Source: Escherichia phage RB69. Taken from it: DNA of 64,000 bases. How positions within the stretch are numbered: position 1 is the first letter of the stretch; each line of letters opens with the position of its first letter. The notes beneath the pieces were generated by a model that made no database searches, was not told where the DNA came from, and was given only the letters and a program-made list of their open reading frames with translations. The stretch lies in sequence record NC_004928.1; one strand, written 5' to 3'. Positions 21,720-29,751 of this stretch are shown in pieces. The position numbers and the translations under genes were made by a program.

Positions 21720-21749
21720 ATAGTATAACACATCCATGTGCTTGTAAAC
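21720..21749 (-). promoter_or_regulatory. early promoter-like element (GTTTAC -35, TACTAT -10)
   Basis: Hexamers on minus strand in the alt intergenic region. Confidence 0.4.
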
Positions 21750-23836
21750 TATCCTTGGACAAATTTAAACGGAACTGATTCTAAATCCATTAAAGATGCT
21801 AACAATTTCAAACCTTTAGGTGCGCTAGTTTTTTCTACAAATGAAGAGAACGATACCGGCTCATCTGATTCGATTTCACCTGTCATAGCAACCACCTCAC
21901 CTGTTTCCATGAGAACATCACCATCATAAATGACAGCTTCATCTAACTGGTCTGAGGACATGACTTCAGCTTGAATAAATTTAAGGTTGGATTCTAAACC
22001 TGCACCAGTGTCAGATGACGCATCTGTAATTTTATTTATCTGCAAGAGAATGCCTCTAGGCAAAATAATTTCTTGCTCATTAGGGTGATTACTCAACTGT
22101 CCTGGATAAATCACGTTAACTTTATGAGCACCATCAATAGCCCATCCAACGTTAACACGGATTTGTTCTGGTGCATGCATAGCTGTTCTTACTTGACTAG
22201 GAGAAATAGTAACACCTTCGTCATTATTGTCAATGTTAAGCTCTTTGCGAACGTTCTTCAGGAGCAAGTCCAAGGGCAACGTTCTCTTTAAACCCACCGA
22301 AAATAATAGGAGCTTGTGAAGTGGAAACATAGTTTCTGAAGTAGAATACCTTATTTTTAACCATTGCTTCGTAAATAGGCATTCTGATAGACTGAGCTCT
22401 ATATAACGTTTGTCCTTCAGGTAACGGTCTCCATTTAAAAACGCCGAATCAAGACCATCAATAGCGCGTTTAACTTCATCTTCATCTGCAACATCGTAAA
22501 AATCTGGTTTATAACGACCTAACAACATATTATTGATATCGGTATACGCAGAAGAGGCATATTCACGAATAGCTCGTTTTTCAGCAACAGAGTATTGTTT
22601 AGGGTCCCGATTCATTGTTATATTAAAGGTGCCTCTAGCCGATTCTCGTGCATAAGTATACATCACATTAGACAAGAACGCTGATTTACGTTGTTTCCAA
22701 GTTTTTTCAGATACTTCAGCTAAAACGTCGTCGGCCAGTTGGAAATTATCACGTCTAAAATCTTCAAACCATTCGTCTTTAATAGAGTCTGCAATCTCAT
22801 TTGCAGCTTCAACAAAAGCAGCTAATGCTTTAACAGATGTTGTTTTTTCAGTTTTAATTTTCTTAGCAAACTTTTCTAAAGTTGGCTTAATAACACCACC
22901 ATAAGAAACTTCATCAGCAAATTTAAAGGATTCATCAATACGATTATAAATCTTATTTTCGATATCAGCAACTAAAGTGCCTTTTGCTGTGGACGATGCT
23001 TGGGCTAGTACTATTTCATATGCTTCAGGAAGTAATTCGGCTGTAGCCGGGCCACTAACTTCTTTAGCAGAATTTTCGTATTTCTGGAATAACTCACCTT
23101 CTTGGCGGTCCGCTTCTAAAGATTGACTTGCTGCAATAGCACGACGAGAAATTTTAGTACGAGCAATAACAGGCTTATCTTTACGTTTTTCTTCTACAGC
23201 AGCAATAGAACCAGCGATAGCCGTTTCTTTGGTGACCTTTTCGCCAGTCTTTTTACTCACATAAACTTCGCCAACATCAGAATCTACTTTCGTGTACAAC
23301 TCTGTGTTAATGTTAGGGATGCCTTTAATATCTTCAATGTTGGCATTTTTACGAACCATCATCACATAGGTGTGTTTACCTGTGAATTGATACATTGCCG
23401 ACAATACTTTAAAACGACCACCGGTTTTAGTAGAAACTAAACGAGCAAGAAGAGTTTGAAGCTGCTGTCCACGTCCTTTCAATTTCTTGGTAGGGAATCG
23501 GAACAGAACTGCATCCATACGAAGAGCTTTAACCTGTTCATATACTGTATTGAAAATGGTGTTGATTGCATCAATAGGAGCAGGACCAAGGCCATTTTTC
23601 AATTCAGCGAGATTACCCTTTTCAGATAGACTCATAATAACAACATGAGCGTATTTGTCGCCAAGTTTAACTTGTTTTACAGCATCACCTTCGGAAAGGT
23701 AAGAGAATAAGCGAACTACGATGTTTGTATCGATATCACCAATTTTCCAGACTTGTGGAACTTTAGCTTTAGGGTTCAAATTGACGACAGGAAGACTGCC
23801 TTCAGATTCAAACACTTCATTTAATTGTTCAGACAT
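21749..23836 (-). CDS. alt: Alt-like ADP-ribosyltransferase (packaged); ORF open but an internal segment appears frame-shifted
   Basis: 695 aa; T4 Alt position; ART-type helix motif YTDINNMLLGR and EQEIILPRG in ORF frame, but YRA and STS motif region reads in another frame (see findings). Confidence 0.8.
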   Translation of the reverse strand: MSEQLNEVFESEGSLPVVNLNPKAKVPQVWKIGDIDTNIVVRLFSYLSEGDAVKQVKLGDKYAHVVIMSLSEKGNLAELKNGLGPAPIDAINTIFNTVYEQVKALRMDAVLFRFPTKKLKGRGQQLQTLLARLVSTKTGGRFKVLSAMYQFTGKHTYVMMVRKNANIEDIKGIPNINTELYTKVDSDVGEVYVSKKTGEKVTKETAIAGSIAAVEEKRKDKPVIARTKISRRAIAASQSLEADRQEGELFQKYENSAKEVSGPATAELLPEAYEIVLAQASSTAKGTLVADIENKIYNRIDESFKFADEVSYGGVIKPTLEKFAKKIKTEKTTSVKALAAFVEAANEIADSIKDEWFEDFRRDNFQLADDVLAEVSEKTWKQRKSAFLSNVMYTYARESARGTFNITMNRDPKQYSVAEKRAIREYASSAYTDINNMLLGRYKPDFYDVADEDEVKRAIDGLDSAFLNGDRYLKDKRYIELSLSECLFTKQWLKIRYSTSETMFPLHKLLLFSVGLKRTLPLDLLLKNVRKELNIDNNDEGVTISPSQVRTAMHAPEQIRVNVGWAIDGAHKVNVIYPGQLSNHPNEQEIILPRGILLQINKITDASSDTGAGLESNLKFIQAEVMSSDQLDEAVIYDGDVLMETGEVVAMTGEIESDEPVSFSSFVEKTSAPKGLKLLASLMDLESVPFKFVQG

Positions 23837-23891: not shown

Positions 23892-24080
23892 TTAATCCAC
23901 AATCTGGAGCAAAGTACGATAAACTTCAAAATTAGGGCCTTTTTCGTACTTATCAAAATTGTCCATAAAAATATGATAGGAATCGTTATTAGGAAAATCT
24001 AATACAATTTGGGAACAAGAGGTGGAAACATCACCACCATCTTTATTAGCGACAACTACTGTTTCTAAATAAGCTTTCAT
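23892..24080 (-). CDS. hypothetical small protein
   Basis: 62 aa ORF between DNA ligase and alt, followed by hairpin. Confidence 0.55.
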   Translation of the reverse strand: MKAYLETVVVANKDGGDVSTSCSQIVLDFPNNDSYHIFMDNFDKYEKGPNFEVYRTLLQIVD

Positions 24081-25573
24081 TATACACCCGTCTGGTCCCA
24101 GGACCCAAATACGTCTTCAAACGAATCCGCTTCTGTTTTATCAAAACGGAACCCTTTAATAATTGGAAGGAAAATACCTACAGTACCTTCACGGCCTTTA
24201 GAATGAACCCAACCATTACATTCACAATCAGCGATACGTCCAATCAATTTACCTTCACGAGCTTCGGACATTAATCGTTCACGGTCCAAATCATGACGCT
24301 CGTCTAAAGGAATAAGAACCTTTACACCGTCAACTGTTTTATGAGTTGTATCTTTAAAACCTGAACCACAATCGGTTGTAATACGACGACAACGTGATAC
24401 GAGTTCGACACCACCCAATTTGTTAGGGTCTTTAGAGTGTTCATAGTATCCTACAACTTCTAAAGCTATATCAATAACTTCTTTAAATTTAATTAGGTTC
24501 TTAGAGCGTTTGTTTTCCCAATATGAATCACGGTTTTTAAGGATAATACCTTCAAGACCTTGGTCAACATATTTTTTATAAACCACTTTAGCTTCGTCAA
24601 GATTACGAACTAACTGATTTTCAATTGGCTCAATTCGTTTAAAGCCTTCAGCCATATTTTCAAGAGCAGCAAAACGAACATCGTATTTCTGACCTTTAAT
24701 TTTGCCATCAGAATAGACTTCATCTAAAGGAACATAGTCCCAGGCTTGAAGAACCATACCTTCAGCTTCTTTAGGAGAAATAGTCCCTTGAAGAGATTTA
24801 TTTGCTAAACCGTTTGAAGTGCTACGGTCTGCAACTTGTACTTCTTCGGATTCTTCATTATCACCAAATAAGAACGACAGGTCATTTCCTGAGCTCACAG
24901 CCTTTTTAATATCAAATGAATGATAAACTAATTCGCCGTCGATTAAAACCCCATTAGGGTGTCTTTCACGAGCTTCTTTAGTCATTTCCATTAGTTCATC
25001 TGCTAATAGGGTAAGACCATGGTATTCATTACCAGCACGAGAAAAGAATTGAACACCATCATCGCGAACTTCAGCGAAACAACGAGCACCATCTGCTTTT
25101 AATTGAGCAAATGCAGGCCATTTAATATTTTTAGTAATCAATTTCTCATCATATGCAGATGCTAACATCTGTGGTTGCAATTGAATAAGTCCTGGCCACA
25201 CCTTATTCGCGATAGACACTGAAGCACCTACTTCAAGGTCGCGCATCATTACACGACGAAGGACTTCTACATCATCAGGTTTACCGTCAGCGATATAACC
25301 CATGAGCTCTTTAATTGCAGCATTACCAGTGAGTTTACGAGTGGCTAATGTGAACTCAATAAAATCCAACATGTCATCTAATTCAAGAAGACCATATGCC
25401 TGAGACCTTTCACCTGGCCCAGGCCATTTCTTAATATAATACTGAATGCCACGTGCATATGTTAAACGATACACGCGTTCAAGTAATTTGTTGTCCTTAT
25501 TTTTCTTAAGGATTTCCTGTTTTGTTTTAGTAGAACCGATCGCAGCTATTTGGTTTAAAATATCTAAAATCAT
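24080..25573 (-). CDS. 30: ATP-dependent DNA ligase gp30
   Basis: 497 aa; adenylation motif KADGAR; T4 ligase similarity. Confidence 0.95.
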   Translation of the reverse strand: MILDILNQIAAIGSTKTKQEILKKNKDNKLLERVYRLTYARGIQYYIKKWPGPGERSQAYGLLELDDMLDFIEFTLATRKLTGNAAIKELMGYIADGKPDDVEVLRRVMMRDLEVGASVSIANKVWPGLIQLQPQMLASAYDEKLITKNIKWPAFAQLKADGARCFAEVRDDGVQFFSRAGNEYHGLTLLADELMEMTKEARERHPNGVLIDGELVYHSFDIKKAVSSGNDLSFLFGDNEESEEVQVADRSTSNGLANKSLQGTISPKEAEGMVLQAWDYVPLDEVYSDGKIKGQKYDVRFAALENMAEGFKRIEPIENQLVRNLDEAKVVYKKYVDQGLEGIILKNRDSYWENKRSKNLIKFKEVIDIALEVVGYYEHSKDPNKLGGVELVSRCRRITTDCGSGFKDTTHKTVDGVKVLIPLDERHDLDRERLMSEAREGKLIGRIADCECNGWVHSKGREGTVGIFLPIIKGFRFDKTEADSFEDVFGSWDQTGV

Positions 25574-25848: not shown

Positions 25849-26664
25849 TTAACAATTTATAGACCAAGTCCATTTAGACGAATCTAAAGGAAAGTTTTGA
25901 ATCGTCCACCACGGCTGCATATCGGTTGGTCCTGGAGTTCGCCAGGTGTACGGATTTGACGGAGCGCCAATTTGATTAGGCCATGCGCCTGGACTTGTTG
26001 CACCAGATTCTTTAAGCAAATCCGCCAATCGTTTTAAAAGGTCTTCACGATCTGAATCTGAATTATGCTCGGGCGGAACCAAACGAGATTCAATATCATC
26101 CCACGTGTGTACACGTTGTGCAGTGCGAGGAATATCATCACGTTCACCACGAGCCAACCAATAAATCGGTACATTAAGAATTTCTGCCGCATGGTCACAG
26201 TGATGAGCTAAATCGTCAACGTAACAAATCACGTTATATTTTGTTTTAGCTAGTTCGAATAATTGTTCCTTTGAAGAATCATGACCACACATCATTACTT
26301 CAGAGAAAGCGCCTGGGAACAAAGCATTCAAATTAAATTGTCTATTCAATCGAGCATCAATTGAATCACCTAGCGCCGTCACGGCTACAAAATTATAGTC
26401 TTCTTTTAGTTTATTGATAACTCGAAGAGCATCCGAATAAGGCGCTAAGTAACGAATAAAATCAGAGCGATTATATTTTTCTATTAATTGTTTACCAAGG
26501 TTATCGTCGGTATTGAACAGTTTACCAGGAGAAATAAATTTTTCGTCCTGAATCATTTTTAAAATATGTTCTAATGGAAGATTATATTTTTGGGCAAAAT
26601 AAGGAAGACCAGATTGCCAGCTTAAACATACACCATCAATATCAGTCAAAATAGTAGGCTTCAT
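25849..26664 (-). CDS. HAD-superfamily hydrolase-like protein with Trp/Pro-rich C-terminal tail
   Basis: 271 aa; N-terminal DIDGV motif typical of HAD phosphatases. Confidence 0.6.
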   Translation of the reverse strand: MKPTILTDIDGVCLSWQSGLPYFAQKYNLPLEHILKMIQDEKFISPGKLFNTDDNLGKQLIEKYNRSDFIRYLAPYSDALRVINKLKEDYNFVAVTALGDSIDARLNRQFNLNALFPGAFSEVMMCGHDSSKEQLFELAKTKYNVICYVDDLAHHCDHAAEILNVPIYWLARGERDDIPRTAQRVHTWDDIESRLVPPEHNSDSDREDLLKRLADLLKESGATSPGAWPNQIGAPSNPYTWRTPGPTDMQPWWTIQNFPLDSSKWTWSINC

Positions 26665-26706
26665 AAAGAGTCTCTTAATAGGTTTAACACATCAATAAAT
26701 TCAGCT

Positions 26707-27129
26707 TCAAGTTAGTATTGTATCATCTTTTGTTAGACCACTAGCCATGCTGTGCTTCAAAATTTTTCCTTTAGAGGCTTGTAAGGCATCACGAAACCCC
26801 TTGTTTTGGATCGCGGCTTCAAAATATGCATTTGTGTATAATTCTTTCCACGCTTCGGAGTATCTTGAAAATGGAACTCCTAACCAGAAGAGAGTCCCAC
26901 GGTCCTGAGCTCTTGCATAAGACCTTCCTGCTTGCTGTGCAGCCAATCCAGACAACCCAAATATACTATGTTGTTGTTCAACATTTTTCACCTTACATCC
27001 TTGGAGAAATCCTTCAAGACCTCCGAATTGAATACCATCCATAACAAAAGGCCATTGAGCAAAGTTACTTAATGCACATGACGGCCACTTGAAATTACTT
27101 CTAATCTCTAACTCAGGCATCTTTAACAC
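26707..27129 (-). CDS. NADAR / YbiA-like (DUF1768) domain protein
   Basis: 140 aa; SNFAQWPF...DG...EGFLQGCK resembles the YbiA/NADAR N-terminal signature (recalled). Confidence 0.55.
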   Translation of the reverse strand: MLKMPELEIRSNFKWPSCALSNFAQWPFVMDGIQFGGLEGFLQGCKVKNVEQQHSIFGLSGLAAQQAGRSYARAQDRGTLFWLGVPFSRYSEAWKELYTNAYFEAAIQNKGFRDALQASKGKILKHSMASGLTKDDTILT

Positions 27130-27328
27130 TTATAATTTCAACATCAGCCCAATGACCATAACCAGGTATACGGTCTTCGATAGATAAATTTCCGTCATTT
27201 TTAGGCATTTTAATTGACGTAACGTATGGTTCTAAACGATTTTCTGCGTGTGGAGAAACATCTGTCACACGATAAGTAACTTCAATCGTTTCCATACCAA
27301 ACAATTTCTGGATTAATTTTTTAAGCAT
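27113..27328 (-). CDS. hypothetical protein
   Basis: 71 aa ORF in operon-like array. Confidence 0.5.
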   Translation of the reverse strand: MLKKLIQKLFGMETIEVTYRVTDVSPHAENRLEPYVTSIKMPKNDGNLSIEDRIPGYGHWADVEIISVKDA

Positions 27329-27332
27329 TTTA

Positions 27333-27677
27333 TTAGAACCTCATCTGAAAGCCATGTGATTTAACATTACCGCCGCCAATATCAGAAATGTTAATTTCAC
27401 TTGCAATCGAAGGATCGATGTCAATTTCACGATTAAGTTTAGTGATAGCCAAAGTATCATGCCCATTTACTGTACGAAACTCCAAAGGACATACTACGTT
27501 GACATAGTGTTTAATTGACTCGCTAGTAGGTTGCAAATGGACCGGAAGGTTTTTAGGTGCTTTAGAGAAAACAACTTCACAAAAGTTTTTGCGGGTATCA
27601 AAATAAGTGGTCATAAACATAATATTTTCCTCAATTGGGAAGCCGAAGCTCCCAGTTAAATTAGATATCGAATTCAT
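27333..27677 (-). CDS. hypothetical protein
   Basis: 114 aa ORF. Confidence 0.5.
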   Translation of the reverse strand: MNSISNLTGSFGFPIEENIMFMTTYFDTRKNFCEVVFSKAPKNLPVHLQPTSESIKHYVNVVCPLEFRTVNGHDTLAITKLNREIDIDPSIASEINISDIGGGNVKSHGFQMRF

Positions 27678-29045: not shown

Positions 29046-29294
29046 TTACTTCAGGGTAATAACAAAATGACGTACTGCTTTACGAGCCGCAGAAGCCAGA
29101 GGCTTAGCAAATTTCAGTTCATCTTTAGCTTCCAGTTCAGCAGCCAGAGTAGCCTGAGCAGGATTCAGATGTTTGAAATAACGCAGGATTTCCAGTGCTT
29201 CGGCTTCAACATCAATAGATGCGCCGTAATTGTCATGGCCGTTATTCCATGCATGGCGTTGCAGTTCAAGAGCGTGTTGTAATTGTTTAATCAT
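29046..29294 (-). CDS. rIII: rIII lysis inhibition accessory protein
   Basis: 82 aa, MIKQLQHALELQR... as recalled for T4 rIII; position upstream of 31. Confidence 0.85.
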   Translation of the reverse strand: MIKQLQHALELQRHAWNNGHDNYGASIDVEAEALEILRYFKHLNPAQATLAAELEAKDELKFAKPLASAARKAVRHFVITLK

Positions 29295-29418: not shown

Positions 29419-29751
29419 TCACTTATAAAGACACGGAATAGCTTTATAGTGGCATGTTACGAATTTCTGTTTAATTTCTTTAGGTTGTTTAAGTCCCAAA
29501 GCCACAAATGGATGTGGAACATTTCGAATTTGTCCAACCGGTAGTGGAGTCAAATCACCGACTTCAACAAAACCTTCAGGAACATCAGGACCTACAGAAT
29601 GAACTACACATAGTTCAGGAACTTCACCTTGAACACGTTTACCAATCACAAGTCCTGATTCAGTAACTTCTTCATCACCTGCTTGAGCGGGTTCAGAAAC
29701 CAGAATGACATATTCACCAACAGCACGAATTGGGAGTTGTACTTCAGACAT
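29419..29751 (-). CDS. 31: co-chaperonin gp31 (GroES analogue)
   Basis: 110 aa, near-identical to recalled T4 gp31. Confidence 0.93.

Follow-up and report, generated by a model that had tools for sequence, protein, structure and literature searches.

The adfN locus of phage RB69

The 64,000-nucleotide (nt) stretch of the Escherichia phage RB69 genome analysed here (NC_004928.1; the window) contains at positions 26707-27129, on the minus strand, an open reading frame (ORF) of 140 amino acids (aa) which begins with GTG. A first-pass annotation, made from the sequence of the window, took this ORF for a gene encoding a protein similar to the NADAR/YbiA enzymes, and the string that it gave as the signature of this family (ALSNFAQWPFVMDGIQFGGLEGFLQGCK) is present in the ORF as quoted. 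The ORF itself was therefore correctly recognized, but its strand, its start and its status as a full-length gene have to be corrected. An exact-protein look-up identified the product, 137 aa long, as RB69 gp30.3 (AAP76114.1, NP_861905.1; UniProt entry NADAR_BPR69, 'Anti-DarT factor NADAR') and the adjoining 271-aa protein as RB69 gp30.2. The gene, i.e. gene 30.3, is referred to below as adfN. In the phage collection, the DNA comes closest to that of Mosigvirus phages, with 94-96% identity.

Translation of RB69 adfN almost certainly begins with the ATG at 27118-27120, which gives a product of 137 aa. This assignment follows from three observations: the ATG overlaps the TGA at which the 71-aa gene 30.4, located upstream, ends (ATGCCTGA), three of the four relatives fetched are annotated with this ATG as start (PhAPEC2 being annotated with a later one), and numbering from it places E36 and K43 on the catalytic residues published for T4. 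The coordinates of the gene and of its surroundings are collected in Table 1.

The function of gp30.3 in related phages is well documented. The protein, named AdfN, is a DNA guanine ADP-ribosylglycohydrolase, necessary as well as sufficient to make T-even phages resistant to DarTG1 (PMC11825919, PMC11125620); Cihlova et al. 2024 call the phage NADARs 'gp30.3 proteins' (PMC11125620). In vitro, guanosine-ADP-ribose is hydrolysed by T4 gp30.3, whereas thymidine-ADP-ribose is not (PMC11125620). Johannesman et al. 2025 reported that T2 and T4 carrying an adfN deletion form no plaques on DarTG1 cells, that the substitutions E36A and K43A impair T4 AdfN, that the purified protein strips ADP-ribose from DarT1-modified DNA, and that AdfN does not bind the DarT1 toxin in a two-hybrid assay (PMC11825919). 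The earlier suggestion that members of this family reverse DNA ADP-ribosylation by DarT-type toxins, and so serve in anti-defence, is thus true for guanine and DarT1 (PMC11825919, PMC11125620). Both the function of AdfN against DarTG1 and the defect of the RB69 allele described below are already published, the former being also curated, and neither constitutes a new lead. The little that the present analysis adds to these papers is an independent confirmation of the conserved core position of the lost helix in all solved NADARs, the private nature of the insertion among about 600 relatives, and the lack of conservation of the linkage with alt.

Assignment of gp30.3 to the NADAR superfamily

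Profile searches placed the RB69 protein firmly within the phage gp30.3 family: it matches Pfam PF08010 (Phage_30_3) with E=6.7e-61 and 204.6 bits (cutoff 36), and PHROG 652 with E=1.9e-45. The PF08010 match spans profile positions 1-125 of 138, the last 13 positions remaining unmatched. In a tblastn search with T4 AdfN, homologues were found in 1509 phage records, with query coverage of 80% or more in 1502 of them.

A profile search against NADAR/DUF1768, which had been proposed as a check of the YbiA resemblance, gave a divided result. For the RB69 137-aa protein itself, the Pfam profile search returned no match to PF08719 (NADAR), and its match to TIGR02464 is weak (E=0.13, 12.5 bits against a 73.7-bit cutoff, residues 17-55). 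In contrast, PF08719 is matched by 19 of the 53 family members at E<=1 (best E=1.5e-7), and a profile built from the alignment of the 53 homologues matches E. coli YbiA (PDB 2b3w) with E=0.006. The latter match aligns SNFa...dG...E.f.Q..Kf, i.e. the motif to which the first-pass annotation had drawn attention. YbiA was reached by this family profile only, as a direct search of the PDB chain sequences with the RB69 protein gave no match.

Structure prediction, also proposed at that stage, yielded a NADAR fold for the RB69 protein, with YbiA as the second-best fold match in the comparison of structure models. The catalytic residues, whose absence would have argued against the assignment, are all kept: E36, K43 and H123 show no variation among the 53 aligned homologues, and the NADAR E-x(6)-K motif, which contacts ADP-ribose, is present as E36/K43. 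H123 follows strand E120-122 in both the truncated and the full-length models. A histidine at the last strand is characteristic of phage gp30.3-type NADARs, whereas the YbiA branch has Glu and the BC4488/DarG1 branch has Asp at this site (PMC11125620), and H123 places the RB69 protein in the phage branch. Membership of RB69 gp30.3 in the NADAR superfamily is thus supported by fold, catalytic residues and profile links, evidence which is independent of the literature. The resemblance to NADAR/YbiA noticed in the first-pass annotation is far beyond chance, and this part of its description is upheld by the fold, by E36/K43, by the family profile and by the PF08719 matches.

The same comparisons bear on the question whether gp30.3 might be a YbiA-type housekeeping N-glycosidase acting on riboflavin-pathway intermediates, as E. 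coli YbiA is, and not a DNA de-ADP-ribosylase. The TIGR02464 match and the rank of YbiA among the fold matches point in this direction. However, the TIGR02464 score lies far under its cutoff, the last strand has His as its branch-defining residue where the YbiA family has Glu, and T4 gp30.3 strips ADP-ribose from DNA both in vitro and in infection, all of which makes a YbiA-type activity scarcely credible.

Another NADAR suited for comparison is DarG1, the antitoxin associated with DarT1 (e.g. that of Geobacter lovleyi, PDB 8bat; Schuller et al. 2023, Mol Cell 83:2303, the structural reference for NADARs). It shares about 15% identity with the RB69 protein, which has no N-terminal extension and carries His where DarG1-type proteins (BC4488 family) have Asp. 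A DarTG1 module is an operon with the DarT1 toxin; adfN has 30.4 and 30.2 as its neighbours, and no DarT was found in the block. AdfN has been published as an orphan antitoxin-like enzyme, and T4 AdfN cannot stand in for DarG1 in uninfected cells.

A single-nucleotide insertion shortens the RB69 gene

T4 AdfN (gp30.3; NADAR_BPT4; PMC11825919) is the orthologue of the RB69 protein, encoded at the same place between 30.4 and 30.2. Over the shared length the two are identical at 130 of 137 positions, and they have E36, K43, H123 and the fold in common. However, RB69 AdfN stops at residue 137 and T4 AdfN at residue 152. This 15-residue shortfall, which is seen in comparison with every close relative, is due to a 1-nt insertion. 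DNA alignment with four Mosigvirus relatives revealed one extra T in the RB69 gene (CTAACTTGAAG versus CTAAC-TGAAG) and no second indel in adfN. The extra T brings a TGA into frame directly after T137, and its location in a TT dinucleotide at gene position 411/412 agrees with the published thymidine insertion at position 411. The truncation was overlooked in the first-pass annotation; both the DNA alignment and the PF08010 match, which ends at position 125 of 138, disclose it.

The 15 lost codons are still intact at 26664-26708 (EAEFIDVLNLLRDSL), and the peptide that they specify is identical to the C-terminus of T4 AdfN. When the extra T was deleted in silico, this peptide was restored, and after it a TGA which, as in all relatives, shares the sequence ATGA with the start codon of 30.2.

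The sequence comparisons lead us to infer that the frameshift arose recently and is confined to the RB69 lineage. It appears to be recent because the 48 nt of the orphaned 3' end contain no RB69-specific substitution; the DNA is identical to that of Shf125875 here. As regards its distribution, the insertion was not found in any of the 597 phage records matching a 66-nt stretch around it, in a collection which excludes RB69's own record (AY303349). None of these records matched at 100% identity, and the best of them align 65 of their own bases to the 66 query bases. IMG/VR likewise contained no match to the exact 41-nt pattern spanning the insertion.

The intact tail might also suggest that full-length AdfN is still made, by a +1 ribosomal shift at ACU-UGA. 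The frame that such a shift would restore is wholly intact down to the ancestral stop, and +1 shifting is known to occur with a stop codon in the A site, as in prfB. However, tRNA-Thr on ACU could not re-pair on CUU, and there seems to be no Shine-Dalgarno-like stimulator upstream. Moreover, on DarTG1 hosts RB69 behaves like a phage deficient in adfN, and an intact 3' end rescues it (PMC11825919), while the integrity of the tail is accounted for by a recent mutation. We therefore regard the +1 shift as highly improbable.

Within the shared length, seven substitutions distinguish the RB69 protein from T4 AdfN, including the RB69-specific pair R51H/R52S. At codons 51-52 (26965-26970) there are four differences in five bases, CATAG in RB69 versus AGACG, T4 and the four Mosigvirus relatives having RR. 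This is the only cluster of RB69-specific changes in adfN. It is probably neutral, as the position varies in the wider family.

Loss of the C-terminal helix and the defect of the RB69 allele

Full-length homologues run about 15 residues past T137 with the pattern E-F...L...R, positions which are at least 90% conserved. The model of a full-length relative (P0002; 152 aa, 86% identical), obtained with the same alignment, reached a predicted local distance difference test (pLDDT) score of 94.2 and contains one added element, a helix at residues 138-151 with pLDDT of about 95-98. In the model of the truncated RB69 protein, confidence drops to 64 over the last residues. The lost segment has an aligned helix in each of the three solved NADAR structures, all of which thus share this helix as a conserved part of their core. 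The architecture of full-length gp30.3, i.e. about 150 aa with a C-terminal helix, is not attained by the RB69 product, which stops at T137. RB69 adfN is a member of the family by descent, and its product is incomplete.

The consequences of this truncation have been described experimentally. The T insertion at position 411 of RB69 30.3, with the loss of 15 residues, was reported to render the allele non-functional (PMC11825919). RB69 was the sole DarTG1-sensitive phage among 17 Tevenvirinae tested and regained plaquing on DarTG1 cells when AdfN was expressed (PMC11825919). All DarTG1-resistant chimeras of RB69 with T2 or T4 had gained the 3' end of 30.3, and T4 AdfN cut at the RB69 truncation point showed reduced activity (PMC11825919). 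The proposal that the RB69 copy is plausibly active in anti-defence is therefore mistaken for this genome, given that the shortened allele is reported as non-functional and the phage is DarTG1-sensitive (PMC11825919).

Based on these observations, we conclude that the ORF is very probably the RB69 allele of gene 30.3/adfN, frameshifted and crippled, and that the phage is left without effective AdfN protection against DarTG1. The identity of the gene, the frameshift, the fold, the catalytic residues and the core helix come from the present analysis, whereas the activity, the role against DarTG1 and the defect of the allele are taken from the literature.

Several points weigh against this conclusion. 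The shortened RB69 protein keeps every known catalytic residue and its model folds confidently, although this confident fold carries limited weight, as AlphaFold is insensitive to destabilising truncations. The activity of the over-expressed T4 truncation was reduced and not abolished, so the term 'non-functional' may overstate the defect. Finally, T4 gp30.3 fails to rescue uninfected E. coli from DarT1 in vivo (PMC11125620), and the full mechanism therefore needs a further T-even factor.

Full-length 152-aa AdfN binds to guanine that carries ADP-ribose in phage DNA and breaks the ribosyl-guanine bond by means of its E36/K43/H123 centre. The removal of ADP-ribose lifts the DarT1 replication block in DarTG1 cells, the further T-even factor being required for the full effect. 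In RB69, the stop that the extra T creates after T137 yields a product which keeps E36/K43/H123 and lacks the terminal core helix. Such a protein is crippled, at best weakly active, and the phage is phenotypically AdfN-deficient. The adfN stop now lies 42 nt before the start of 30.2, without the ATGA overlap, and any translational coupling to 30.2 may be weakened as a result.

Alternatively, the 137-aa protein might be a working hypomorph directed at weaker or different DarT1-like enzymes, or at other guanine-specific ADP-ribosyltransferases, though failing against the tested E. coli DarTG1. We consider this unlikely. DarTG1 blocks RB69 strongly, and the gain of only an intact 30.3 3' end is enough to restore resistance (PMC11825919). 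The lost helix belongs to the conserved core of every solved NADAR and contains near-invariant residues, and the absence of further gene decay, which would be expected of a working gene, is equally expected if the mutation is recent. A similarly small chance has to be allowed for the idea that the RB69 protein is a stable hypomorph with a complete catalytic centre, which might protect against another guanine-directed ADP-ribosyltransferase or work at a reduced level, or that RB69 readily recovers DarTG1 resistance through loss of the one T, the site then being a simple on/off counter-defence switch.

With regard to annotation, the RB69 ORF should be entered as a frameshifted adfN allele instead of an active gene for anti-defence. 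This single base explains the DarTG1 sensitivity of RB69. RB69 and T4 also encode a second anti-DarTG1 factor, AdfA (gp61.2), which acts against the same defence in the same phages. Unlike AdfN, it is an unrelated small protein which binds DarT1, is non-enzymatic and is encoded elsewhere in the genome (PMC11825919).

Genomic neighbourhood and the relation to alt

RB69 adfN is located in a minus-strand block of T4-type gene order: alt, a 62-aa gene, gene 30, 30.1, 30.2, 30.3, 30.4, the 114-aa ORF, 30.7, 30.8, the 82-aa ORF and the 110-aa ORF (Table 1). The annotations of the last two come from matches in the Acinetobacter phage DP45. The 30.3' gene, which in T4 and T2 separates 30.4 from 30.3, is missing from RB69.

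Table 1. Features of the adfN region of RB69 (positions are those of the window)
Feature	Position	Strand	Basis
alt, 695-aa Alt-type ADP-ribosyltransferase	21749-23836	-	PF03496, E=3e-15
DNA ligase gene 30	24080-25573	-	T4-type block
Gene 30.2, 271 aa; HAD-like hydrolase in relatives' annotation; starts 42 nt after adfN stop	25849-26664	-	Exact RB69 gp30.2 match
Orphaned 3' end of adfN: 15 codons (EAEFIDVLNLLRDSL) and ancestral TGA, out of frame, untranslated	26661..26708	-	Translation, T4 identity
adfN (gene 30.3), RB69-type shortened allele, 137 codons and TGA at 26707-26709	26707..27120	-	ORF, PF08010, exact RB69 gp30.3 match
TT dinucleotide with single inserted T (gene position 411/412)	26709..26710	-	DNA alignment with four Mosigvirus relatives
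Codon H123, last-strand His marking the phage gp30.3 branch of NADARs	26752..26754	-	Invariant in 53 homologues; after strand 120-122 in models
Codon K43, catalytic Lys	26992..26994	-	Invariant in 53 homologues; aligns with YbiA K; K43A impairs T4 AdfN
Codon E36, catalytic Glu	27013..27015	-	Invariant in 53 homologues; aligns with YbiA E; E36A impairs T4 AdfN
Gene 30.4, 71 aa, no Pfam match	27113-27328	-	ORF upstream of adfN
Three upstream in-frame codons GTG-TTA-AAG of the 140-aa ORF, probably untranslated in AdfN	27121..27129	-	Relatives' ATG annotation, E36/K43 numbering
Unnamed 114-aa ORF, annotated gp30.6-like in relatives, no Pfam match	27333-27677	-	ORF
82-aa ORF, by position and size rIII	29046-29294	-	Matches DP45 'lysis inhibitor accessory protein'
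110-aa ORF, by position and size gene 31	29419-29751	-	Matches DP45 'head morphogenesis'

The first-pass annotation had placed adfN next to the virion ADP-ribosyltransferase gene and had proposed, as one possible function, ADP-ribose editing in a phage that also encodes ADP-ribosyltransferases. The end of alt is in fact 2.9 kb away from adfN, with four genes (the 62-aa gene, gene 30, 30.1 and 30.2) in between. In six distant phages, of Aeromonas, Klebsiella, Vibrio, Caulobacter, Rhizobium and Ralstonia, tblastn gave no match to alt, ligase, 30.2 or 30.4 in the 3 kb around the adfN homologue, which sits there among tRNA, RNA ligase or helicase genes. Since alt, ligase and 30.2 are missing from the vicinity of the homologue in these phages, the proximity of adfN and alt is a matter of T4-type gene order passed on by descent, and no conserved module.

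This result bears directly on the view that AdfN reverses ADP-ribosylation by Alt, ModA and ModB of the phage itself, its location in the alt/gene 30 region reflecting a functional pairing. An Alt-type ADP-ribosyltransferase gene does lie 2.9 kb off on the same strand, and an Acinetobacter T4-like phage keeps the order alt / ligase / 30.2 / 30.3. Against such a pairing are the four intervening genes and the arrangement in the six distant phages. Furthermore, the targets of Alt, ModA and ModB are arginine residues of proteins. The NADARs tested, including T4 gp30.3, cleave guanine-ADP-ribose in DNA and not thymidine-ADP-ribose (PMC11125620), and the phenotype of the adfN deletion is specific to DarTG1 (PMC11825919). 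Editing of the products of the phage's own transferases is thus very unlikely, and the proposal finds no support either in an unconserved proximity or in enzymes which act on guanine-ADP-ribose in DNA.

A recurring neighbour of adfN was considered as a candidate cofactor. None of the RB69 neighbour proteins adjoins adfN outside Straboviridae, a result by which a cofactor is neither identified nor excluded. The scan for promoters and terminators between 24000 and 31000 gave 21 sites against 20.9 expected, i.e. the chance level, and is uninformative on early expression. The label 'early' for the adfN block rests on general knowledge of T4.

Gene 30.2 (25849-26664) gave no Pfam match at E<=0.01. 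The N-terminus of its product (MKPTILTDIDGV) resembles HAD motif I (DxD). The gene adjoins adfN in the Acinetobacter T4-like phage (47% identity) and not in more distant phages. In alt, PF03496 is matched twice, by stretches apart from each other, that at aa 413-468 being the best, and YSTS and EQE motifs occur further on. A double frameshift hidden in the leucine-rich part of alt (about aa 470-540) was considered and rejected, as stop codons abound in both other frames and the ORF is intact.

Other homologues and database entries

Several database entries of gp30.3 relatives deserve comment. The 109-aa 'gp30.3' of phage SV76 (OM339528.1, 1001-1330; P0010, with 16 member sequences) was considered as a second disrupted allele. 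This was rejected, since the DNA contains an intact 152-codon gene; the short product results from a mis-called GTG start. In the same phage (665-869), gene 30.4 is called as two ORFs of 38 and 32 aa, both matching PF26911, and may be frameshifted.

The 90%-identity cluster which holds RB69 and T4 gp30.3 (137 and 152 aa) is represented by a 279-aa gp30.2 and includes many gp30.2 members. As far as their sequences indicate, the two proteins are unrelated, and their joint cluster looks like an artefact of database clustering. It may also explain why the RB69 protein did not surface as its own match in the homologue search.

A Klebsiella phage, Roth21 (PQ657794.1, 3001-3450), encodes an AdfN homologue 41% identical to T4 AdfN which is annotated as 'anti-CBASS protein acb1'. 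This label looks like a mis-annotation.

Finally, in six entries (P0017, P0075, P0053, P0043, P0018 and P0014) a foreign N-terminus is joined to the C-terminal half of AdfN, or the protein breaks off in the middle. P0017 contains gp30.7-like sequence, and P0075, from phage vB_EcoM-RPN226, gp30.8-like sequence. These entries may represent deletions in the 30.3-30.8 block which destroy adfN or, equally, artefacts of gene calling. If they are true deletions, the T-even phages concerned are predicted to be DarTG1-sensitive.
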